From Reclinomonas americana ATCC 50394 (lineage: Eukaryota): DNA of 51,242 nt. The position numbers and the translations under genes are program-made. Positions within the stretch are counted from its first letter, which is position 1, and every line of letters begins with the position of its first letter. The stretch covers positions 67,291-118,532 of the forward strand of contig PS015208.1 in assembly GCA_048213135.1 (NCBI GenBank), in the 5' to 3' direction. Below the pieces are notes generated by a model, which worked only from the letters and a program-made list of their open reading frames with translations, was not told where the DNA came from and did no database searches. Of this stretch, positions 13,637 through 51,242 are shown one piece after another.

Positions 13637-15360
13637 TCAACGCCAGTCTGTGCAACGTCCACAACGTGTGTGAGCAACGGTGTGCGCCTTGCAAGCAGGA
13701 CCACGTTAACGCAACGGCCGTGGTGGTGACGGAAGTGCTCCTTGATGCGGTGCTTGACGGCCTTGTCCCAGAGGAATCCGCTGCAGGTGCGTAGAGATGA
13801 GATGGGAGTGAGGCAGTAAGTGGCAAGGACATGCGATCTCACCGCAGGCGACACTCTGCATCACAAAGCACCGTCAGCGTTCTTATTGAGCATGTCAACA
13901 AGGGGGGCAGACAACAACGCACCTCGCTTGATCTGCTTGAGCACTCGGCGAGCCTCGTGATGACTCTGCGTGCACCGCGCATGTGAGATGCAAAAAGAAA
14001 ATGCAGGCTGCTTACCAAATGAGACAAACCATGCACGACAAGTCGCCGTACGCCTCTGTGTTTCAGTAGAACATGCGAGTGAGACACGTGTCGCGGTAGT
14101 TCGAGCGGAGGAGAGACAGTCACTCACCAAAGCCCGGCTGTTCAAAGGCAGCGAGACACACACAGACAACAGGTAAGTAACACACGCACAGAGCATCACA
14201 CGTGGCTCGTCATTTCCTGCGCAACATAGTACAGGCCACCACGCTGCATCGATGTAAAACGGATGAGCACAATTTCACGACCAAGACAAGCGAAGCGACG
14301 ACTCTCACCGACACCGGTCGAGTCTCCACCACCACCACTGGCTGTGGCGGCGGTGCGTAATACACGGGCTGCGTCGGTGGCGGATAGTACTGCGGCTGCG
14401 GCGGTGGATAGTACTGCGGCTGTGGCGGTGGGTAGTACGACGACGGAGCGGGAGCCACCTGCGGATGCGCCGGGGCGGCGTACTGTGGCTGCGGAGGCGG
14501 GTAGTACTGCTGCTGCTGTGGCGGTGGATAGTACTGTTGCTGCTGCTGCGGCGGCGGCGGCGGCGCATACTGCTGCGAGTAATCATACTGCGGTTGCGCC
14601 GGAGCATACTGCGGCTGCGCGGGTGCGTATTGCGGCGGCGGCGGCTGCTGCTGTTGTGGCGGCGGTGGCGGCGGCGCATAGTGCTGCGAGTAGTCGTACT
14701 GCGGCGCCACAGGAGTCTGCTGTTGCGGCTGCTCACAGTCGGCGATCAGAAAACGGAACCCACAGTAGTCATGCAAGAACTGATCGAGACCTGATAGTAC
14801 CCAGACGCCGGCTGATGCGCCGAGTCGTATGCCGGTGGCGGCGGCAGTGGTGCCGGCGGCTGACTCACCGCAGGCGCAGCCGGAGCCGGAGCCGGAGCCG
14901 CCGGTGCCGTGTTGTACACAATCACAGTCGGCGCGGCCGCCGGCAGAGCCGGTGCCGGTGTGGCGGCTGCTGCGGCCACTGCTGGCGCCGAGGGAGCCTG
15001 TATTGGAAACAGCATATGAGACACACAAAGTCGTGGGTGAACCGTACGTGTCTCTCACCATTCGCATCGGTGTCAACTGGCAGTCAGATGATGATTGATT
15101 TTGAGTGAGAGGATTGATTGCACAATTTGAACTCTCTGTTTTACACACCGTGCTTGGCTCTGGGGCTGCTGCGGCGCTTGCACTGCCATTGATCACATAG
15201 GCAGCGGCTGCAGTTGGCGAGGGATTGGGTGTGGTGGTTGTCTGGCCCTGCAACACAAGAGGTCATGACGTGCGCGCGCGTGCGAAGGGGGTGAGAGGGA
15301 GAGAGGGGGACAGCGCGCAACTCCGCCACCGACAGCCGCGAGGAAGTTGCCGCCGCTCAT
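13637..15360 (-). CDS. Pro/Gln/Tyr-rich protein with a small His-rich C-terminal domain
   Basis: MSGGNFLAAVGGG|GQTTT..., YYPPPQPQ repeats, then RGGLYYVAQEMTSH|PGFE|AYGDLSCM|SHHEARRVLKQIKRE|CRLR|GFLWDKAVKHRIKEHFRHHHGH|WR-stop via short exons. Confidence 0.6.
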
Positions 15361-21400: not shown

Positions 21401-24239
21401 TCATCTGCGCGGTCAGTCTTTGGTGTCAGGTGTTTCTTCTGCACTTCTCACTCAACTGCGTTCCTTTTTTTGTGACAGTCGTCTGAGCGAGGGCAGCTTG
21501 CCGGAACCAGAGAGTCTCCAGTCGGGTGTTCCTCGCATTCAACACGTTTGTCACCATCACCTTGTGTGCTTGCATAGCCGTGATGCGTGAATTCGCTGAC
21601 TCTGTTGATGTTGATGTGCGATTAGTCGCCGGCCATGCCGAGTGTTCCATCGACGCCAATCGTGATGGCTGGCGCCGACGATCGGAATGGAGAAAGCTCT
21701 CCCCCGAGCTCGTCGGCCGCAAGTCCGGCAGCGTCGCCGCGCGACAATGAATCCGATCAGGACAAGGTGCGCTGCTTCTGTCTCTCTCGTTGTTCGTTGG
21801 TGATGTCGACCTCACTCTTGTGCTGCAGATCAAGCAACGTATCCGCGAGAAACTCGAGGCTCGCAAGCGTCTGCGCAACAGTGGCTCGGCGTCTCCATCC
21901 GATTCGCCAACCCCGGAACCGTCCAGCAGTCCGATTGTGCTCGACGCGTCTGCTGCTCGGAAGGTGAGAGAGAGACAGAGTCAGGGCGGGTGCTGCATCG
22001 TGGATGGTCTGCTGACACACCCACGCCACAGCCGTTCGGTGACGATTCCACTGGCACGGCGTCGGAGATGACACCGGATCCGAGCCCGCGACCGGACGGA
22101 GCGAGTGGCTCAGCAGCGGGAGGCTTTGAGATTGTCTCGGGTGTGTGTCATGGACGGCTGAAGATCCCGCGTGGATTTAATCGAGGTGCGACGCACGCAA
22201 CAAGGCCGGATTTTTTTTGCGATCACTTAAGTCTCACATCTCCTGTGACAGATGTGCCGCCTGCCTTGCGTGAGGTGCTGGCGGAGAATCTCGACGTGTT
22301 GTGCGAGGGCGAGACGGACGGCTGGAGGCATGTGTTCCTCTCCTACGACAGTCCCTTTGACGACATTTCTAGCAAGTTGCGTACATCAGTGTACCCCGCC
22401 ACGCCGATGCATTCTCCGGCACACGCTCACTCAACTCACTCCTCTCGTGTGTCTGCGTGCAGGTTGACGGCGCAGTTGAAGAAGGACATGTGGCGCAACA
22501 AGAGTGACCGCGAGGCGCCGCTGCCTGGCCCACAAGGAACCGTGCGTCGCTTCTCCTTGTGTGCCGTGTTTGTTACAACGCTGACGTTCGATGCCTGCAG
22601 CTGAGGTGTCGTACTATTATGACGACAAAGCGTGACGTGGACGCCCAGATTACACTGCTCGGTTCGGAGACGGCAGTGGCTCTCTCGGTGGTGCAAATCC
22701 CGCCATCCAAGGTCGATTTTGTGCCGTCGGAGGGCATGCAGATTGTGTGTGCAACCAAGGCTGCGGTGGCCAAGATGCAAACCTTGATGGAGAACCACGC
22801 CGCTAGCGCCGGCGCTCGGACCGTGCAATTCACGTATCAGTGCGACGACGACTATTTCGCCACGGCGCGAAAGCTGCACTGGGTGCAGCGTCTGGGCGTG
22901 CCAACGTCAATCACCTCGCTCGCTCCCATTGCCAGTCTGGTCAACCTGCGAGTGTTGCAGGTGGCGTCGCGTCGAATCACCTCCCTGACACCTGTGGCTG
23001 GCCTCGGTGAGAGCGTTGTAGTGGTGGCTAGAGTACTTGTCAACTGAACTCACTCACATGCGCACTTGCCTGCGTGTGTGCAGCCAATCTCGAGGAACTG
23101 GAGCTGCGATCTGTGTGCGCCCAACCTGGAACCCCGCCCATGGACCTGGCACCACTGGCCTCGTTGCGGCGGTTGACAGTGCTGAGGCTCGATGGCTGCA
23201 ACATTTGCAATGCCGATGCTGGTCTCGCCAACAAGCCTGCGCTGACGGCGCTGTCAATGCGCGGCACAAATGTCACCTCGGTGGACGCACTGCGCTCCAT
23301 CCCGACGATGAGAGACTTGGATCTGTCGGAGTGCACACAACTCACCGACCTGGGTCCACTGCTGGAGTTGGCCAATCTGGTGCGTCTGTGCTTGGCCGGA
23401 ACCGCTGTACCCGCGTCCTTTGTCAACAGCATGGAGAGCATGGCTGGTTCGTCTATCGTCTGTCTTTGTTAGATTTGTGTGGATGAGTGAGTTAATAATG
23501 CGTGGTGCGCAGGGTCGGCATTCCCGTTGCTGGAGGAGCTCGACGTGTCGGCCGACCCGAAGAAGCTGGTGCCGAATGCGGTGCGTGACTTGTCAATGGT
23601 GTCGGGCTCGACGTCGATGAAGAAGCTGTCGCTGTGCCACTGCGCGTCGCTGCAAGGTACACCTGTTTGCTGTACGAGTGTCTTTTTTTCACATACTCAC
23701 GGGGGTGGTCGACGCAGACATTCGTGAGATTGTGAATCTGGCCAACCTCATCGAGTTGCACTTGGACCACACACGACTGGCAGACGTGGGCGCGCTCGGC
23801 TCGCTGCAGCATCTGCAGGTGCTGTCGTTGCTGGGATGCACCTCTGTTGACAATGTTCGCATGCTGGCGCGATCGGCCAAGCTCGTCGACCTGGACGTGT
23901 CGTTGACGGCCACGAGCGATTTGAGTCCTCTCACTGGTGCGTCTTGCACTTGTCCGCCACCTCTTGTGAGCATGGCCACTCATGTATTGTACAGGTCTGA
24001 AGATGCTGAAGCGTCTGGCGTTCCACGGCACACCGGTGCGCTCGCTGGAGGCACTGGGCGAGCTGACGAAGCTGACCACCATTGACGCCCGTGGCACGGC
24101 AATCACTGAGGGCGATCTGGAGTTGTTGAAGCCGCTGATGCGCACGTTGACGGAGCTGAAACTGCCGGCACGGCTGCGCGAACACGTCTCTTCGGTGCAG
24201 TCGGCGTCGCCGCGACTCAAGATCGAGTTCGACGAGTGA
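15468..24239 (+). CDS. Large protein: N-terminal ARM/HEAT-like helical repeats, low-complexity middle, C-terminal LRRs (may be two genes)
   Basis: More than 20 GT-AG introns link frames from MDVVAAAA to LKIEFDE-stop. ARM-like segments (IVDEEGVYALLECS, VVQKGLEYFLRSL) and internalin-like LRRs (LTDLGPLLELANLVRLCLAGT, LADVGALGSLQHLQVLSL). Continuity across the two gaps (20450-20871 and 21239-21258) is unproven. Confidence 0.65.
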
Positions 24240-24338: not shown

Positions 24339-26049
24339 TCACACAACAGCATCCTTCGCGAGCTCGGGGAACACTCTCATCACCTTGCCAAGAATGTAGC
24401 GGCCGTACACAATGCCCTCCTTGCCTGCATCCGAGTCCTTGGCTTGCTCGCGCAACAGCTCGGCTGCCTCGGCCAGTTCCTCGGCCGTCAGCGTCACGTT
24501 GCGCGACGCAGCTGCAGTGGCCAGATCCAGAAGTTGCTGCGGCAGCGGGCGCACGACACAGCTGTGTGAAGGCGTCGGTGGTGAGTGTGATAGCCACCAG
24601 AGTGGATGCGGGGCAAACCGGCTCGCAACTCAAATGGCGGATCAAAGAAGAGTGGCATGCTCACTCGGTGGCGGTCCGACCGGTTCCGCACACGGTGCGG
24701 AGTGGCCTTGTAGAGGCCACGAGTCCACGTCTCCAGCATGTCACCTGTCACGAAAAAATGAGACGACTCGTTCCACAGCTGACGTACTACGATTGCAGTG
24801 GCGCACCAATGTTGATGACAAAAGTGCCGTCGATCGGCGGTGCGGCAATCCATTCACCAGTGGAACGGTGCTGCACCTCCAATCCACCAACCTCGTCCTG
24901 TGCACATACGCAGCGAGTCAGACGTGTGAGCAGCACAGGAGGCGTCGATTAAATTTCGACACAGCGCAACTTGCGCGAGAATGGTCAGCTGCAAGAAAGA
25001 CACACACATGCACACGCGCGTGTCAGCAACAGGAGAAGCAAGTTACACTTCCTTCTTCAATAGAGTCGCCACGCACCACTCCATAGTCAGTGTGCACTCC
25101 GCACGACAGTCGCTCGCCGTCCTCCTTGGCGCCGGGCTCGTACTTGCCCTCTGGATCACCCGGGTAGCCAAAGATACGGAACGGAGTGAAAGGCTCTGTG
25201 CGTGTTTGCACCCATGAGCTTGCATGCCACTACCGCCTCGCACTGCCAGAGACAGAACAGCCAGACCAGCTGTGAACGCATCGCGGAAGAATGTTGCCGG
25301 CAGTCCGAGTGACTCGCCAATGTGTTGCATGATCACGTGGCCGAGTCTGCAGCACTCGTGAATCGCCGCGACGGTGGGGGCGAAGGGGGAGCGACAGTCG
25401 ATAGCGCAACTCTGTCATGTCGTGCATGTAGCCCAAAACATCTTGCTTCATCGTCGGGAATTCGTCATCCTTGTCACGCTATGAGGGAAAGAGCACACGA
25501 CAAGGGAGGAGAACAAAGGTCCACTCAACTGGCCACTGATTCGGTCCGTGCATGGGTGTACCGGCAAGCACCAGTGGATGATCCTCCGGCAACTCCGCAC
25601 CATAGTACAGACCTCTGTGCGCCCGCAGTCAACAACAACAACAACCAATCCGAAGATCAGTGTGAAAGACGGAACTGTTTCCAGTCGCGTCGCCCCGATG
25701 TCAGCTCCCCACCAACTTGAAAGTACCCCTGAGAGACAGACAATGAGAGAGAGAGAGAGAGAGCAGCGATCACTGGCGAGTCTCTCTNNNNNNNNNNNNN
25801 NNNNNNNNNNNNNNNNNNNNNNNNNNNNNNNNNNNNNNNNNNNNNNNNNNNNNNNNNNNNNNNNNNNNNNNNNNNNNNNNNNNNNNNNNNNNNNNNNNNN
25901 NNNNNNNNNNNNNNNNNNNNNNNGTGTGTGTGTGTGGTGGGGGGGGGGGGGGGGTTGAGGACACACAGTGAGACATGCAGTGGACGCACTTGTGCGTGCT
26001 CTTCAGCAGTGCACTGGCGATCATGCAGGTCGATCACGGGAAGACTCAT
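24339..26049 (-). CDS. 2-oxoglutarate/Fe(II)-dependent dioxygenase (IPNS/DIOX_N-like)
   Basis: [34 protein letters not shown] (HxD), [23 protein letters not shown] and TPHRV...[10 protein letters not shown]. Confidence 0.92.
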
Positions 26050-34670: not shown

Positions 34671-37600
34671 ATGCTGAGCAGCGTTCTGCGATGGAGCGCA
34701 CAACAGCTCTCCACGCCATCCTCGACGTCGAAAGCATCGTCAGCGATGATGACGACACTGATGACGCAACCACTTCGATGGCATCTCTCTCGGCGAGGAT
34801 TCATCGAAATGAGAACCACACTGCCCGACAACCCCGGTAGGAGCAGCAGGCACCTTACTCACACACAGACACATTCTCTTCTCTCACACACGCACACACA
34901 TGCACGCAGGCGATGCACTGAAAAAATACGGCAAGGATCTGACCGAAGTTGCATACTTCTCTCTCTCTCTTCCCCCACCTTCTCTCTCCCGCCACTCACA
35001 CCTCCACTCACTCAGTTGGCGGAGAACGGCAAACTCGATCCGGTGGTTGGTCGCGACGAAGAGATTCGCCGCACTCTGCAGGTGCTCGCCCGTCGCACCA
35101 AGAACAACCCGGTTCTCATCGGGGAGCCGGGCGTGGGCAAGACGGCGATCATCGAGGGCCTCGCGCAGCGCATTGTCAAGGGCGAGGTACCGGACAGCAT
35201 TAAGAACCGGCGAGTGATTGCGCTGGATTTGGGCTCGTTGGTCGCCGGCGCCAGCTACCGCGGAGAGTTTGAGCAGCGACTCAAGTCGGTGCTGCGCGAT
35301 GTGCAGCAGGCCGAGGGCAAGATGCTGCTGTTCATCGACGAGTTGCACACGCTTGTGGGCGCTGGAGTGCGTTGCTGCCGAGTTGTCGCGATTGGTTCCG
35401 GTGAGGGAAACTGACTGTGCATGCAGGCTGCTGAAGGATCAATGGATGCGTCAAACATGCTAAAGCCGGCACTGGCACGTGGCGACTTGCACTGCATCGG
35501 TGCGACGACGCTCAACGAGTATCGCAAGGTTCGACCGTTCGCGGTGTGTCAAGGGTGGAACCTGTCTCCTAACGACCACCACGCACACAGTACATTGAGA
35601 AAGATGCCGCGCTGGCGCGGCGATTCCAGACCGTGTTCGTGCCAGAGCCGTCGGTGGAGGCCACTATTAGCATCTTGCGTGGATGTTGCGCCTCTTTCCT
35701 CTGCGCCTTCGTCACAACTTCTGCCATCCCGAAGTGACGATGCTCGTGTGCAGTGAAGGAGCGCTACGAAGTGCACCATGGCGTGCGAATCGCCGATGGA
35801 GCACTGGTGGCCGCCGCTGTGCATTCGCACAAGTACCTGTCGGAGCGCAAGTTGCCTGACAAGGCCATTGACTTGGTGGACGAGGCAGCCAGTCGCCTGC
35901 GTCTGCAGTTACGTGGATCTTTATCATCGATCATGCTCGCTCTCCCTCACTCCACACACACACACCCCAGGCAAGAGAGCAAGCCAGAGGACATTGATCA
36001 GCTGGATCAGGCCATCATCACGCTGAAGATTGAGCGCGAGGCGCTGAAGAAGGAGAGTGATCGAGCGTCGCTGGAGCGTCGCGAGCGTGTCAATTCCGAA
36101 CTGCGCCAGAAGCAAAACGAAATGGACCGCCTCATGAAAGTGTGGCAGGAGGAGAAGTTGCGTGGAGAGATCCTCGTCGCTTCTTGTTGTTCTATCCCTG
36201 TTCTCACGCATATGCACAGGAAGCGCATCAACGAACTGAAGGAGTCCAAGGCGGCACTGGAACGCGCCAAGGCCGAACTGGAACGAGTGCAACGCACCGG
36301 CAACTGGCAGCGAGCCGGCGAGCTCAAGTACTCCGAGATTCCCAAGCTGGAGCAGGCGCTGAAGCATGAGTTGCGTGCGAATCAACTACACGAGGAGCAT
36401 GTTTCTCTGTGGTCTCACAGGATTCGCAGAGAATCGGATGAGCTCCGCATGCTGAGCGACGTGGTGACGGAAAAGGACGTGCTGCGCGTGATTGGCAAGG
36501 CCACGGGCATTCCAGTCGAGGTGTGTGCGAGAGAGACGGCCGGCCATGTCAACCGTTTCCTTTCTCGTCGCTTATCAAAATGCACGGTGACGCACAGAAT
36601 TTGATGATGGGCGAGAAGGAGCGCTTGTTGCAAATGGAAAGCATGCTCAGCAAGCGCGTCGTGGGGCAAGACGAGGCCATCAAGGCGATCAGGTGAGGCT
36701 CACTACCGAATTGTTATTTATTGCGTCTCCAGTTTTTTTCTGTGGTCTCATCGCCGTCGTCCCAGCAATGCAATTCGCGTTTCGCGTGCCGGTTTGCATG
36801 CGCACAATCGCCCGCTGGGCTCCTTCTTGTTCCTCGGCCCAACGGGTGTCGGCAAGACCGAATTGTGCAAGGCGCTGGCGCAGTTCCTCTTCAACGACGA
36901 CAACGCCATGGTCCGCATCGACATGAGCGAGTACATGGAGCGCTTCTCCGTGTCGCGCCTTGTCGGTGCACCACCGGTGCGCAATGTGTTTGCGCAGTGC
37001 GTCAGCAGTGGATTGTCGTCACTCACACGCCAACAAAACTTGCAGGGCTACGTCGGCTACGAGGAGGGTGGCACACTGACCGAGGCAGTGCGTCGCCGAC
37101 CGTACCAACTGGTGCTGTTTGACGAGTTCGAAAAGGCGCACCGCGAGGTCTCCAACATTCTGCTGCAAGTCATGGACGAAGGCCACTTGACCGACAGTCA
37201 GGGCCGGCGAGTCGACTTCAAGAACACCCTCATCATTCTCACCAGCAACATTGGCGCACAGTCGCTAACTCCCGACTTGTCGGTACGCATTCTTCTTCTT
37301 CTTTCGCTAAGTTCACTGGCACTGACTGAACGGTGTTGTGGCGATCGATGACAGGATGCGGAAGTAAAGTCGACGCTGATGGATGCCGCGCGCAACTTCA
37401 TGGCCCCCGAATTCTTCAACCGTCTCGACGAAGTGGTCGTCTTCAATCGCCTAAAGTTCGAGCACATGGATCGCATCATCGACGTTCAAATGCGCAGTTG
37501 CGATACTCACTGTGGCCGATGCTGGGCATGTTTACTGATGGAGACCGTGCGTGAACAGATATTCGCGGAATGCTGGCTGATCGACACATTGACGTGGAGC

Positions 37601-37976
37601 TGGACAAGCCCGCTCGCGAATTCCTGGCTCGCGTTGGCTTTGAGCCAGCATATGGCGCCCGGCCACTGAAGCGCGCCATTCAGGTACACACTGCTGCTGT
37701 GGAAGTTGACCTTGGTCGGTCTTGTCTCTCGCTCACACGCCGCCGTCGCTGTGACACCAGGAACACCTGCTGAATCCGCTCGCGGCTCGCCTGCTGCAAG
37801 GCGATGTGCTGGAGAACGATCTGGTGCGCGTCCTGGTGGACCCTGTTGACCGCAAGCAGCTGACGTTTGAGATTGAGCACCGCGGTGAGCCTGCCGGCAA
37901 GGCCGACGGCAAGTCCGCGTCGAGCTCGTCCACCAAATCGAATGGCTCCGTCCAGGAGGCCGAGATCGTGTCTTGA
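34671..37976 (+). CDS. clpB: ClpB/Hsp100 disaggregase, mitochondrial Hsp78-like
   Basis: Walker A motifs GEPGVGKT and [15 protein letters not shown], middle coiled coil, [30 protein letters not shown] and YGARPLKR. It lacks the N-domain and begins with an Arg/Ser/Thr-rich presequence. Fourteen introns. Confidence 0.96.
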
Positions 37977-42456: not shown

Positions 42457-45404
42457 GACGCAACGAGTAGTTCGGAAGCGCGTTAACAGGCGCCACGGAA
42501 CATCGGCCGAGTCAATGGCGAGCGACAGCAGCTCGCGCAACGGCGTATCAGCTGCCAGTCCACTGGATCCGCTGACGTGGAGTCGGAGGCGCCTTTCGGC
42601 AGCCTCACGCGCCAACGTGCTCAATGATTTGGTCTTTGTTGGAGAAGCACGGGGCATATTAACACAAGGCAATGAACACCCCCGGAGGGGGATAGAAGCT
42701 GACACTAGCTCACCTGGCCGCTGATAATGTTGCGAGTGTTGGTCGGCAGGTCGAGGTGCAGAATGTTGCGAATGGCGAACAGCATGGCCACCGTCTCGTG
42801 ACGGTCCGTGTTGATCAAGCGACGCTCGTGAACCGGGTAGCGGCCACAGCGAGCGGCCACATTTGCCGCCTGCGTGTTTCCACACAGACAGTCAGCAACA
42901 ATGACATCAACGCGGTGGAATAGACTCGACGCACCTCTGGGGGCATTCCGTTTCCAATGTCAATGTGCAACTCGAGTGTGCGCAGACTGGCCACGTATCG
43001 ACACAAATGCTGTGCAGTGGCGGGTGAGCGACATGGGATGAGAAACAAGGGTGATTGTTGGCGCTGCTGCCTGTCACCTTGAAGCACACGTTGCGCGCCA
43101 CGGTGGTCAGTCGCGCCTCACTGTCGCGGAACACAACATCACGCGGCAGTCCACGGCGAACAAACTCCTCGTGCACCCACGTGAGCGGCTGCACGTCCTC
43201 CGAGGCGTACACAATGAGATCGCGCGACAGTGGTCGGTGTTGCCAGAGATTGCTGCGGCGCACAAGATGGGTAAGGGGCTGCGAGAGAGACCGACGACTG
43301 CGCTGCACACACCGGTCCTGATTCATCATGCTGCGCACTTGGCTTTTGAGGTCGGTCGCCGACTTGAACCCGAGCTGAATCAACAGACTCGTGAAGCCAA
43401 TCTCCCGCGAGGGCTTGTGCTGCGAGTCGCCACATCTCTCAGCACTTCAAGCAACATCGCACTGTGCGTCTGAATGGATGGTCACGACGTACCTGTCGCT
43501 GCATCAAGTGCTGCCACGCCACCTGCGTGTCGAACACGGATCGCAGAACAATTCTGTACTGCTCCAGCAGTGCACCTGCGTCAGCACGGCAGTCGTGAAT
43601 GACCTGTGGGGGGTCACATGTGCGCGCGGTCAGCTTGTATGCACTCACAACACGAGCTCATGAGCACTGACCTTGGTGTACGCCGGACTCTCCAACAGCC
43701 ACCGCAGAGTGCTGGTGGGCTCGGACAGCATGCGCGGCTCAGTGGAAATGTCAAACAGGTACACGTTGCCACGCGGATCCGACAGTTGCAGCAGACAGAG
43801 TGCGCCGCTGGTCGTGGAAATAGTACACCAGCAAGAAATCAACACCGATGCATGATTGTGCACACCAGATGCATGTGACGACTCACGTGTACGACAGATT
43901 GACTCCCTCGCAGTCCCACCCGAGCACGTCGTACTGCTGCAGATGTGAAGCCACAATCTCACATCGCGCGTATGAGTCCACCAGGAACAGCTTCCCGTAG
44001 ATCCCTGACATTGGTTGCGACAGGTTGTCCACCAGCATCTTCTCCCACTCCTGTCGATCGTCCTCCGGCTGTACACAAACAAAATGAGTGTCGATAGCAC
44101 TGCCACCAACACAAAGCACAACGCACTCTCGGTGGCGACGACAGAGACGATACGACTGAAGCGGCTGTCATCATGCCGGAATTCAACGGCGCCGGCACAC
44201 TGTGAGGTCGCGACTGTGCCGACACGCCACCACCACCACCACCGCTGCCGCCATTGACGCCGCGCGGCGAGTGCGAGAGTGGAGAGGGACCGCCGCCAGA
44301 GCCACCACCAGCACCAGCACCACCGCTGCCCGGCGGCGAGCCCATGGGATTGAACGAGTACATGGGTGGCGACGGTTGCGGCGGCGGCCTGCCCATCATC
44401 ATGCCCGGCGGTCCAGCTCCTGCGGGATAGTACGGCGCTGGCAGATGCATTGGCTGGCGCGAGGGCGACGGCATACCACCGGGCATGCCGTACGGCATGT
44501 GACCGAAGGAGCCGGGGGGCGAGAACGCCATGGGCACGTACAGCGGCTGCCCCGGATTGTAGCCGGGAAACCAGAGTGGCGAGCCGACCGACGGTCGCAT
44601 GGAGGAGGCCCCCGGCGACGACGGCATGTGCATCGGCATGGATGGCGAATACACAAAGTCAGTCGGCGTACGCGCGGCCGGTGAACCCACAGCCGGACCC
44701 CGCGGTGACGGCGACTGCTGCTGAGTCGGCATCGGAAGCTGCGACGGTGCACGCGAATACACTTGTCGCGGCTGCTGCTGCTGCTGCTGCTGCTGTGGCT
44801 GCGACGGAGGCGCACGCTGCTCCTGTGGCTGCTTCACCACCTGCAGCGACACAGCAGCTGGTGGAGGCGACGCTGGCGGCAGCGGCGACGGAGAAGCCGC
44901 AGGAGGAGGAGGAGACGCCGGCGGTCCGGGCGACGTTGGCGGCCGCGGACTCACCGACACCATCCACGCCGGCGTCCGTCCCTGCGACCACACCGACTGC
45001 ACCTTACTGCACCCACACACATCATAAGCCATCACCGCCACACACACATAGCTCATCGTGTATACACAGAGTGAGTCGCACGCACCCACGCGCTGGCACC
45101 GGCTGCACCGGCTCATCCTCTCCATTCTCACCATCCTCATCAGCATCATCGTCCCCGCCACTGCCCGCGGTTGCAGCAGCAGCAGCTGCAGCAGTTGCTG
45201 CTACGCTCGCCGCATGTGCACTGGCATGCGCAGCAGCACGCAGGTTGCGGCGACGCGATCGTCGGCGACCTGCGCAAAAAGAGGGAAGCCATCGTCAGTC
45301 ACATTCTCGCATCTCTCTCTCTATCTCTGTCTCACTTGCTGTTGTCTGTGACACTACGTGTGTGCTTGTGGGTGAGAGAGAGAGAGAGCCCTGACGCAAC
45401 CCAT
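40465..45404 (-). CDS. Fusion of an EXD1/Egalitarian-like DEDDy 3'-5' exonuclease and a degenerate UPF1-like SF1 helicase, with a Pro-rich N-terminus
   Basis: Exonuclease motifs VLGWDCEG, LCLLQLS, KVIHDCRAD, VFDTQVA and WQHRPLS...YASEDV. Helicase motifs DESQLGAL, ITGPPGTGKS, GPTNATVDNL, VILDGASQ, QQYRL and VSLTRS. GT-AG splicing links the two domains in frame. Confidence 0.8.
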
Positions 45405-45636
45405 ATGTGCTGTCTGCGAGTGTGCAGGTGCGCGCGCGCGTCAGCAAAACGCACACGCACACACAGACACAGACAGGCTTTCTCCTCTCGTCACGCTCTG
45501 CTCACGCGCACTGTGCACACACACAGAGAGAGACAGAGACAGACAGACGGAGAGAGAGACAGGCGCACACACGCAGGTGAAAGTCGATGAGAGAATTTCA
45601 CATCCTGTCGGATTGATTGGTGTGGTGTGTGTTAAG

Positions 45637-46644: not shown

Positions 46645-49380
46645 TCTCTCTTCTTCTTCTTCTTTTCCTCCTCCTTCTCCTCCTTCTCCTCCCTTCTCCC
46701 TTGCCCTCGTCTCACTCTTGCGCCACAGTTCAATACCTCAACATCAACAGACCTGTGACGGCGATGGCTGTCGGCGCACCCAACGTGAACTCGTCACACG
46801 ATGCACTCTTTGTGGGCATGGGCACCAACTTAATGGCGTTGCGTGGTCTTTCCCCACACATACTCTCCATTGCTGTCGCCAAGTGGTGCTCAAACGTCTT
46901 GCTCGCAGGTACGACGTGGAGCGCAATCAGGATTTGTTCTATCGCGATGTGCAGGATGGCGTCGGCGGCCTGGTGTTTGGGCGCATTGGCAATCGGCCGA
47001 TTCCGCTCATCATTGCCGGCGGCAACTGCTCGGTGCAGGGGTTCGACTACTCCGGCAACGAGTCGTACTGGACGGTGACGGGCGACAATGCCTCGGCGCT
47101 GACGCTTATTGACGTGAATCGCGATGGCGAGAACGAGCTGGTCGTCGGCACCGACGACTTTGTCATTCGTATCTTCCAGAACGACGATGTGGTGGCGGAG
47201 ACGGTGCGCGAATGACCCCCGACATTAGCGTTGTGCACACGCGTCGTCGCCTGAAGAAAAGAATGCTGTACAGGTGGAAACCGATCGCGTGGTGGATCTG
47301 TGCTCCATCCAGGGACCACGATACGGCTACGCGCTGGCCAACGGCACCGTGGGTATCTACGAGGCCGATCACCGCGTGTGGCGTGTGAAATCCAAGAGCA
47401 GTGTGCTGTCGGTGGTCGGCTTTGACCTCGACGGCGATGGCGTGCCGGAGATCATCTCCGGCTGGAAGAGCGGCAAGTTCGAAGTGCGCAACCAGGGCAC
47501 TGGCGAAGTGGTCTACAAGGATCACTTTTCACGAGCCGTCGTCAAGGTGCTCACTGCCGACTACCGAATGGACGGCAACTTTGCCGTCATTTGCTGCACC
47601 TCCGAGGGAGAGAGTTGCGTGGCGAAAGTTGCCGCAGTGATATCGAGGTGCGGCAGCTCAACTCTGTTGCGTTGCAGTCAAGGGCTTCCTGCCGGCCACC
47701 GAGGAGCAGGCTGCCGAGCTCATGGACAATGCACAAGAAGAGGAGCAGCTCAAGGCTCTCAACCAGCACAAGCAGGTGCGCTTATTATGCAGAGGGACTG
47801 GAGACGACTCACCTGCTCACCTTCCTCTCTCTCTCTCTCTCTCTCTCTGTGTGCGTGTGCAGGAACTCATGTACGAGCTGCGTTCGTACGAGGAGAATCT
47901 GCGGAAACTCAAGGCCGGCGAGAGGAGTGCTGGCCTGGTCCCGCACGACACTCACGTTGGCTGTGCTCTCGTCGTTGCGTGCATCAGCGGCTCGTGTTTT
48001 CTTTCTATTCCCTATCTCACCATCCGTGTGCACACAGGGCGATCCATCGAGACGCATTGTCGAGGCGGTGATTGAGAGCACACCGGGCACGGTGATCAAG
48101 GCAGCCGTGTTGTTTGCGGAGGGATTGTTTACGGGCGAGAGCTTCTTCTCTTGTCCGCGGGAGCCGACGAACCAGCTGCGCATTCCCATCAAGCCGGAGC
48201 GTGATGTGGGATGCACCATGTTTATTCAGGCCATGGTCGGCACGCGCATGGGAACGCAGTTCCACGTGTTTGAGTTGGCCTTGCTGGTTCCCAAATTCTG
48301 TGTGTACGTGTTGGAGCCGCGCGAGGCCGTCAAGAGGCCACGCTCGTCGGTTGCATTCAGGCTCACGCAGCGGAATCAACGAGTTTCGTGTGTTGTCGCC
48401 CGCCGTCTACTCCCTTTGAACGAGTGACACGCTCAACCAATTGTTGCAGATTGGCTTGTGGTTGGAGCGCAGCTTTGGTGTGCCTGCTGCTTCACTCCCG
48501 GACTCAGACGCAATCGACATTTCGCTGCGATCGATGCGAGACGGCACCGTCGTCGTCATGCAGTTCACCACCGACCGCCTGACCATCTATGTGGATCGCA
48601 TGGATGTGGCCGCCGATATTGTGCAAGACATGTGTGAGGCGTTTGAGATTGATGAGCTGGAGAGCGAAGTCGATTTCCCCGAGGAAATGGAGCGCTTCCG
48701 CACTCTGCTGCAGGAGGTCTGTATATTTGTGCCAGGTACGGCATTCTTTCTACTTGCTGACTCGTGTTCGATGGCAGGTGGACGAGTTCAACGCGGCGCG
48801 CCTGAAGATGAATGCCGAAATGGCCGACAGCTCACAACTCATCAAGACGCTCGTCATCAAGGCCGAAGACGCACGCATTCTCGGCGACATGAAGCTGATG
48901 AAGCAGATGTACGGCGACTTGCACGACCTCAACCGCGAACTCATGGGCGAGTACCAGAAGCGAGCCAACAACCATGCCGAGCTGCTGCGTCAGNNNNNNN
49001 NNNNNNNNNNNNNNNNNNNNNNNNNNNNNNNNNNNNNNNNNNNNNNNNNNNNNNNNNNNNNNNNNNNNNNNNNNNNNNNNNNNNNNNNNNNNNNNNNNNN
49101 NNNNNNNNNNNNNNNNNNNNNNNNNNNNNNNNNNNNNNNNNNNNNNNNNNNNNNNNNNNNNNNNNNNNNNNNCTCAAGGAGGTCAACAATGTCATTCAGC
49201 GAGCGAGCAAGCTGCGAGGTGAGTGGTGGAAGACGGCAGGGGTTGATGGTGCTTGCCACTCAGATGATGGTTGCAGTCGGCGAAAGCAAGGCTCGTGTGG
49301 TCAGCGAGTGCCGCAAGGCCATCAAGAGCAACAATATCGCCGCCCTCTTCAGCATCATCCGCTACGGTCGAAGCAACTGA
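45637..49380 (+). CDS. BBS2: Bardet-Biedl syndrome 2 protein (BBSome subunit)
   Basis: [51 protein letters not shown]...WTVTGDN, YALANGTVGIY, WRVKSK, QFHVFEL, AEMADSS...KAEDARILGD and IQRASKLRVG. Confidence 0.96.
46090..46700 (+). repeat. Pyrimidine-rich simple repeats ((TTC)n, (TTG)n, (CT)n) filling BBS2 intron 2
   Basis: Directly visible; pure (CT)n at about 46556-46640 next to a gap. Confidence 0.9.
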
Positions 49381-49986: not shown

Positions 49987-51242
49987 TTAGAGGAAGTAGA
50001 TGGGACGTGACGGCGCGTACTGCGTGTGTGCCTCCTCGTCCCACTTGAAGATCTTGAAGTCGCGCTCCAACGTCTCGTTGAAGGCCAGAATCGAAGCGAG
50101 GTTACCGCAGCGCTGCAATGACGATACTCGTGAGAAATGCGAGGGAGACGAGGGTGAGACGATGCAAGACAGTACTCACCGACTGCACCAAAGGAAGAAG
50201 GCAAGTCGAAGAGGCACAGAGCGAGTGAGTCACCGAAGTGCGATGAAGGTAAGGGAGCAGCGACGAAAGCAGATGATGGGGTACGCAACGCACTAGAATC
50301 CGGAAAGAGGGTGCGTACGGAAGCAGTCAGAAGCACACACAAACAGTTAGTTGTCACGCATATACAGACGCCACAAGCGACAGGACTCACGTACTGCGCA
50401 AACAAAGCAACAACTGTTGTGAGCAAACAACAGAGACAGATGTCGCAACAACAAAGAAAGAGACGCAACGTTGGGGGCACTCCACACAGTGACCAGGTTC
50501 TGCACACAAAAAAGAAGCACGTCTCTCACTCAGCCACAAAACAACACTCAGACAAACCGAGGGCAGCAAGCACGCACCCTCTCCTTGAACATGTACTTGT
50601 ACCCCTCTTGCACGAGCTGGTGAGCGCGGCAAATCAACTCGAGATTGTTGATGTGTGCAAACTGCACAGTCACCACCACGTCAGTCACCGTTTGTCATCG
50701 CAGGGAGGACTGGATNNNNNNNNNNNNNNNNNNNNNNNNNNNNNNNNNNNNNNNNNNNNNNNNNNNNNNNNNNNNNNNNNNNNNNNNNNNNNNNNNNNNN
50801 NNNNNAGACAGACATACGCGCCTCGGTGGTCACACGGTTGCCAAAGATCCAGCCGGCACCGCGCGGGCTCAACGCCCACGTCTCAATGTCCTCCGGATCG
50901 CTCCACATCATGTCGCAGAAGGAGCCCTCGTGTGGGATCTCCTGCTTGCGGTCAATGAGACGAATCTGATCCAGGGTCTTGACCTCGGGTGACAGGCCAC
51001 CGTGCACACACAGAATGCGTCCGTCAATGACCTGCACGCAAACGACATGAGAGTGTTGGAAGGCGGCAGAAAGAGAGAGAGCAAGCGAGCGACAGCAGCA
51101 CGCAACAGCCGCAATGTTAAAGTAGTCGCACACTTCCATGCAGTACTTCCACGCGTTGCCGGAGCCGTACTTGGACTCGCACTCGTCGTAGAAACCATAG
51201 ACCTTGGTGATCTGGCGCGACTCGTGGTTGCCGCGCAACAGC
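49987..51242 (-). CDS. PPP6C: Ser/Thr protein phosphatase 6 catalytic subunit (PPP6C/SIT4-like); 5' part lies outside the window
   Basis: [89 protein letters not shown] and C-terminal YFL-stop. Confidence 0.93.

Follow-up and report, generated by a model that had tools for sequence, protein, structure and literature searches.

A protein phosphatase gene of Reclinomonas americana ATCC 50394 very probably contains three consecutive exons of only one codon each. The gene encodes a probable PP6-type member of the PPP family and occupies the last 1.3 kb, on the minus strand, of a 51,242-nt stretch of contig PS015208.1 (assembly GCA_048213135.1, positions 67,291 to 118,532), hereafter the window, in which the 3′ two-thirds of the gene are present. 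Between the exon that ends in WSAPN and the exon that begins with RCGN lies an interval of 357 nt (50469-50113, minus strand), which we interpret with considerable confidence as a series of four short spliceosomal introns, all in phase 0, with a constitutive exon of one codon between each intron and the next; the three exons together would encode the Tyr-Cys-Ser of a SAPN-YCS-RCGN loop. We take this loop to be the beta12-beta13 loop of PP1 and PP2A, which lies beside the active site. The interpretation is based on three lines of evidence, namely a unique parse of the interval, splice signals typical of this genome, and the presence of the same three residues in the closest relatives. Throughout, a microexon is an exon of at most 30 nt, and the ultra-short class comprises those of at most 15 nt. 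The proposed elements of the interval, in the direction of transcription, are as follows.

50394-50469, minus: intron A, 76 nt, phase 0; donor GTTGCGT, acceptor CAG, CTNAY motif 26 nt before the 3′ end, pyrimidine share 0.65
50391-50393, minus: putative microexon 1, TAC, Tyr (PP2Ac Tyr265 equivalent); AG-NNN-GT unit, unique parse, spliced model
50293-50390, minus: intron B, 98 nt, phase 0; donor GTGAGT, acceptor TAG, CTNAY motifs 34 and 54 nt before the 3′ end, pyrimidine share 0.75
50290-50292, minus: putative microexon 2, TGC, Cys (PP2Ac Cys266 equivalent); AG-NNN-GT unit, unique parse, spliced model
50183-50289, minus: intron C, 107 nt, phase 0; donor GTTGCGT, acceptor CAG, CTNAY motif 43 nt before the 3′ end, pyrimidine share 0.80 (last 20 nt)
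50180-50182, minus: putative microexon 3, TCG, Ser (PP2Ac Tyr267 position); AG-NNN-GT unit, same Ser in the closest relatives
50113-50179, minus: intron D, 67 nt, phase 0; donor GTGAGT, acceptor CAG, CTNAY motif 18 nt before the 3′ end, pyrimidine share 0.60

Parses of the 357-nt interval

The original prediction had placed three AG-NNN-GT units at these positions, and a script finds exactly three in the interval, with matching letters and with intervening stretches of 76, 98, 107 and 67 nt, as had been proposed. Plain units of this kind are abundant, with 387 in the window (181 on the plus strand and 206 on the minus strand), and their count alone is therefore uninformative. Given the base composition of the interval and introns of at least 40 nt, the number of ordered triples of AG/GT-flanked Tyr, Cys and Ser codons expected by chance is 1.9e-6. 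When a YAG acceptor and a donor hexamer of the type used in this genome are both required, six units are found on the two strands of the window, three of which are the microexons described here; another of the six (22373-22375, plus) is, on inspection, an ordinary donor that ends a long exon.

All GT/GC-AG parses of the interval were enumerated, allowing introns of at least 40 nt and up to 30 inserted nucleotides. With either GT or GC donors there are 223 in-frame parses, nine of which insert three residues and one of which yields YCS, while with GT donors only there are 73 parses, three of which insert three residues (FAT, FR-stop and YCS). The closest cluster of relatives consists of the sequences P0011, P0125 (full length, 303 aa) and P0126, which are ~90% identical to our model, and all three members read SAPNYCSRCGN. 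That the microexons supply the three missing residues Y, C and S in the correct order, as was claimed, is well supported, though indirectly, both by the sole YCS parse and by the relatives. The spliced model that includes the microexons is 594 nt long and has no internal stop; it matches P0011 at 180 of 197 residues (91.4%) and P0125 at 177 of 197, with no gap at the microexon site. When the microexons are left out, a gap is forced into the alignment at exactly residues 259-261 of P0125. Through the alignment of P0125, the Tyr-Cys-Ser of the microexons falls on Y265, C266 and Y267 of PP2Ac, where the numbering is counted from the alignment.

Were the interval instead a single 357-nt intron in which the three units are decoys, SAPN would be joined directly to RCGN and three loop residues would be missing from the protein. 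This parse is one of the 223 in frame and has canonical ends, with GTTGCGT as donor at 50469 and CAG as acceptor at 50113; the abundance of plain units on both strands lends it some support. However, such an intron would be more than four times as long as the 60-78 nt of 15 reference introns (described below), and the ordered Y, C, S triple with its splice flanks would have to be a coincidence of ~2e-6. YCS is moreover kept in three of three relatives, the loop positions are kept at all 67 loci of other eukaryotes that cover the motif, and the residues align with Y265-C266-Y267 of PP2Ac. We consider a single intron extremely improbable.

A different possibility is that the splice units are real while part of the loop is encoded by another parse, either a 9-nt exon, TACTGTCTT (50174-50166, Y-C-L), or a 6-nt second exon (50292-50287, Y-C-V). 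The first parse requires a GAG acceptor and a GC donor and the second a GC donor. Both are among the nine three-residue parses that arise when GC donors are allowed, and intron i2 of the same gene is probably of the GC-AG type. Against this, the third residue in the relatives is Ser rather than Leu or Val, and the GC donors that both parses need are unlike the donor types of this genome. The TACTGTCTT parse would additionally leave a last intron of 53 nt, shorter than all 15 reference introns, and its GAG acceptor is found in none of the 19 introns examined. There is accordingly next to no probability left for either variant. The stretch TACTGTCTT (minus strand), which lies just after the donor of intron D, had drawn attention as a single 9-nt Y-C-L exon; in view of the Ser of the relatives and the 53-nt intron that would be left, it was judged a coincidence and rejected.

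Splice signals and proposed stepwise intron removal

As a reference set we used 15 introns, comprising 13 from a mitochondrial ClpB/Hsp78 gene in the same window (34909-37844, plus), which was modelled against P0127, together with i1 and i3 of the phosphatase gene. The open frame of the spliced ClpB/Hsp78 model comprises 687 aa and shares 70.9% identity with P0127; the 13 introns of the gene measure 60-77 nt and fall within less than 3 kb, at ~1 intron per 160 nt of coding sequence. Across the full set the lengths range from 60 to 78 nt. The donors are mostly GTTGCG (4 of the 13 ClpB introns and i1) and GTGCG, with GTGAG in one of 13, and the acceptor is CAG in all 13 ClpB introns, 12 of which carry a CTNAY motif 12-29 nt before the 3′ end. 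Introns A to D each possess a GT donor of a type found elsewhere in the genome, a YAG acceptor, a CTNAY motif and a pyrimidine-rich stretch. GTTGCG(T), counting i1, A and C as well as the four ClpB introns, is the commonest donor seen, with GTTGCA and GTTACG as variants, and it departs from the usual GTRAGT at positions 3-5.

Several observations weigh against the three-microexon interpretation and are gathered here. The four introns had been described as normal in length for this genome, which is true of A and D (76 and 67 nt), but not of B (98 nt) and C (107 nt), both of which exceed all 15 reference introns; another intron, near 22380, measures ~87 nt by eye. In B and C the nearest CTNAY motif also lies farther from the acceptor (34 and 43 nt) than the 12-29 nt of the reference introns, and the TAG of intron B is the only acceptor other than CAG among the 19 introns examined. 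The gene is truncated by the end of the window, with its 5′ part outside, and an assembly gap of 90 N (50716-50805) lies inside its intron i2. Finally, no intron was found inside the motif in other eukaryotes, where 67 of 71 loci cover the motif and all are contiguous, and the genes of the closest relatives may themselves be without these introns at the microexon site.

A further possibility is a silent or decaying gene copy, or a misassembly, in which the splice-like units would have no present function. The assembly is a draft that is broken by 16 N runs across the window, including one in the phosphatase gene, and the 5′ part of the gene is out of view. This explanation is hard to reconcile, however, with a 594-nt model that has no internal stop and is 91% identical to a relative read as expressed, or with signals that are intact in all seven introns of the gene, and neither repeats nor duplicated segments were found in or around the interval. 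We therefore regard this explanation as very unlikely.

How three abutting one-codon exons might be spliced is suggested by the signals themselves. Each of introns A to D carries a complete complement of signals and has the dimensions expected under intron definition, and would therefore be recognized as a unit through its own donor, branch-like motif, pyrimidine tract and YAG. An exon of 3 nt is too small for factors to occupy its acceptor and the next donor simultaneously, and for this reason neighboring introns would be removed one after another, with one codon added to the growing exon at each step in a manner akin to recursive splicing. Precedents exist in plants, where the authors of a study of the 1-nt exon of Arabidopsis APC11 argue that its flanking introns cannot splice simultaneously and propose intron definition with stepwise removal; they also note that the intron downstream of the 9-nt exon of potato invertase is removed first (PMC4674806).

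The microexons could also be real but regulated, as the original prediction suggested, such that a fraction of the transcripts lacks some or all of them and encodes loop variants that stay in frame. This would be compatible with the three-microexon interpretation. Since the four introns are in phase 0 and the exons are 3 nt long, any subset of the microexons could be skipped in frame, and each of the corresponding sub-parses (Y, C, S, YC, YS and CS) is canonical. Conversely, all three of the relatives that cover the site carry all three residues, and the PPP loci examined almost always retain the Tyr and Cys. On balance, regulated skipping appears unlikely, and the microexons are more plausibly constitutive.

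The phosphatase gene and its relatives

The remainder of the gene within the window was assembled from translations, searches with P0125 and comparison with the relatives, giving the following exons and introns in the direction of transcription.

51107-51241, minus: exon LLRGNHES...YFNIAA, truncated by the window end; translation, tblastn with P0125, Pfam Metallophos
51032-51106, minus: intron i1, 75 nt; donor GTTGCGT, acceptor CAG; an intron-like read-through in P0010 stops at the same point, before VIDGR
50822-51031, minus: exon VIDGR...VTTE, 210 nt (P0004, 70 aa); translation, Pfam Metallophos E 2.1e-09, 91-94% identity to P0011 and P0010
50662-50821, minus: intron i2, probably GC-AG; begins GCGCGT; contains the N run 50716-50805, hence true length not fixed
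50578-50661, minus: exon FAHINN...KER, 84 nt; translation, tblastn with P0125
50500-50577, minus: intron i3, 78 nt; donor GTGCGT, acceptor CAG; an intron-like read-through in P0126 ends in Q just before NLVTVW, at the same position
50470-50499, minus: exon ending WSAPN, 30 nt; translation
49987-50112, minus: last coding exon RCGN...PIYFL and stop; translation, tblastn with P0125

Intron i2 is read as GC-AG because its only acceptor cannot be paired in frame with any GT donor, and something could be hidden inside its gap of 90 N. Pfam Metallophos matches two exons of the gene, and the PPP motifs LRGNHE, SAPN and RCGN, together with the C-terminal YFL, are all present in the exon translations. 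P0125 matches the PP2Ac of solved structures with an E value of 6.4e-124. For the 70-aa exon, the named proteins that match best are PP6 catalytic subunits and the plant 'phytochrome-associated' phosphatase, and P0125 is 67% identical (203/302, gap-free over the full length) to a PP6 catalytic subunit so named by JGI. On the basis of these matches, assignment to the PP6 type within the PP2A/PP4/PP6 branch fits the predicted protein.

Traces of introns vary among the sequences of the relatives. P0011 and P0125 run through the positions of i1 to i3 without interruption, while the second relative, P0010, has intron flanks at the positions of i1 and i2. P0011 and P0126 each open with a short intron-like read-through that ends in Q, located before GDYLDRG in P0011 and before NLVTVW in P0126, and the latter suggests that the position of i3 is common to this relative and the window. 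The sequences of P0011, P0125 and P0126 are best read as spliced or partly spliced RNA, given that i1 to i3 are missing from P0011 and P0125, that P0010 has intron flanks, and that the read-through starts of P0011 and P0126 occur at different sites of the same sequence. Short read-through open frames of the relatives were also sought with the last exon, and this yielded no candidate.

Beyond this cluster, a metagenome scan with P0125 recovered 71 loci of other eukaryotes, with a best match of 76% identity, while a scan of prokaryote genome contigs gave no match. Among the other eukaryotes, 45 of 50 motif-bearing loci read SAPNYCYRCGN, making the Ser at the third position unusual, whereas the Tyr and Cys of the loop are conserved in nearly all PPP loci examined. 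As a separate observation, two metagenome contigs that encode calcineurin-like phosphatases, L062 (near 762) and L070 (near 950), carry a TGA, in frame, in place of a codon for the conserved Cys of SAPNYC. Euplotid ciliates read TGA as Cys, and such a genetic code would fit both contigs.

Known microexons, intron origin and neighboring features

Exons of comparable size have been described in several systems. In plants these include the 1-nt exons of APC11 and VPS55 and the adjacent 5-nt and 12-nt exons of Peptidase M1 genes (PMC4674806, PMC8831610, PMC11096116). Like the proposed PP6 run, plant microexons are coding, lie far below the size suited to exon definition, have ordinary flanking introns, are routinely missed by annotation and can adjoin one another, and for these exons, too, a stepwise excision of the introns on either side has been proposed. 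The plant cases, however, are single exons or one unequal pair and are confirmed by RNA-seq or RT-PCR, whereas the PP6 run would consist of three equal single-codon exons with a 30-nt exon upstream, is found in a protist, and is predicted from sequence. Human RPS24 has three consecutive microexons of 3, 18 and 22 bp (PMC12207440, PMC11162997, PMC12686416), and so resembles the PP6 run in having three neighboring microexons, one of them of 3 bp. These exons are alternative, mixed in size, located at the 3′ end of the coding region and separated by long vertebrate introns, in contrast to the PP6 run, where all three would be 3 nt long, probably constitutive, and situated in a conserved catalytic loop.

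Single 3-nt exons are likewise reported, in Drosophila homothorax (micro-Ex8; PMC7392893) and in human MAP4K5 (PMC8632122). As with the PP6 microexons, each supplies one codon in frame; unlike them, these exons are solitary, at least partly alternative, and belong to genomes in which exon definition dominates. Ratchet points, the sites of recursive splicing known from Drosophila and vertebrates (PMC6110457, PMC8605326), offer a mechanistic parallel; there, as is proposed for the PP6 run, an acceptor adjoins a donor and one splice regenerates or exposes the next donor, such that removal is stepwise. Ratchet points are zero-length exons of which no trace stays in the mRNA, and they serve to break up very long introns, whereas the introns of the PP6 run are short and each step would leave one codon behind. 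Single exons of 1-3 nt, pairs of microexons and mixed runs have thus been published, while our literature search found no report of three consecutive 3-nt exons, although supplementary microexon lists might contain one.

If transcripts confirm the structure, this would be the tightest exon run that we found described, one in which three exons of a single codon directly follow one another within a conserved catalytic loop. Such a run would mean that intron recognition can work with almost no exon between introns, three times in succession, and would provide a simple natural substrate for studying the order in which abutting introns are removed. There is also a practical consequence, in that gene predictors and spliced aligners would omit these codons and report a phosphatase without residues of its active-site loop. 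A candidate 18-nt exon in another gene of the window (described below) suggests that such annotation errors may be frequent in this genome.

The arrangement bears on intron gain as well, because independent random gains could hardly account for phase-0 introns at each of four consecutive codon boundaries. One idea, which we put forward tentatively and consider rather doubtful, is that the run is the tip of a lineage-specific planting of new introns beside old ones, for example when an excised intron is inserted one codon away through reverse splicing. In that case the genome would hold many one-codon exon runs, abutting introns would be removed in a fixed, ratchet-like order without exon context, and the organism would be a natural test bed both for how small an exon can be and for how introns are gained. 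An origin from introners, duplicated introns or tandem copies of coding sequence, which was addressed by pairwise alignments, copy and repeat searches and a coding comparison, is not supported. When six stretches were compared by local alignment (with the ends of i1 and i3 a few bases off), the observed score of each pair was attained by at least 7 of 200 shuffles; no other copies of the introns were found in the window, and no repeats in or around the interval. A likeness of the 5′ ends of introns B and D to coding sequence, noted by eye, does not rise above shuffles (at least 112 of 1000) and was set aside. Long open frames across the interval on either strand gave no Pfam match, and a search for structured RNA found no Rfam family in the window.

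Elsewhere in the window, a gene for a 2OG-Fe(II) oxygenase probably contains a microexon of its own, judging from its splice signals and translation.

24989-25076, minus: intron upstream of the candidate 18-nt microexon
24971-24988, minus: candidate microexon LTILAQ, 18 nt; acceptor CAG, donor GTTGCG
24898-24970, minus: intron downstream of the candidate 18-nt microexon

The upstream exon ends in ...HTDYGV and the downstream exon begins with DEVGGLEVQ..., the latter matching positions 37-64 of the Pfam 2OG-FeII_Oxy profile with an E value of 2.7e-4, just under the curated cut-off. LTILAQ presumably fills the conserved stretch that follows HxD in the 2OG oxygenase family. A strict scan for splice signals gave two more candidate microexons, both on the minus strand, of 10 nt (14128-14137) and 13 nt (45401-45413), the second of which, with an ATG in it, may represent a first coding exon. 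In the ClpB/Hsp78 gene, a search with a 288-residue open frame returned a best match of 47% identity. Together with the mitochondrial ClpB/Hsp78 gene, a BBS2 GAE domain (Pfam E 2.5e-24) in the open frame at 47426-48424 (plus) marks the source as a flagellated eukaryote, and from the BBS2 domain it follows that the organism builds cilia or flagella.
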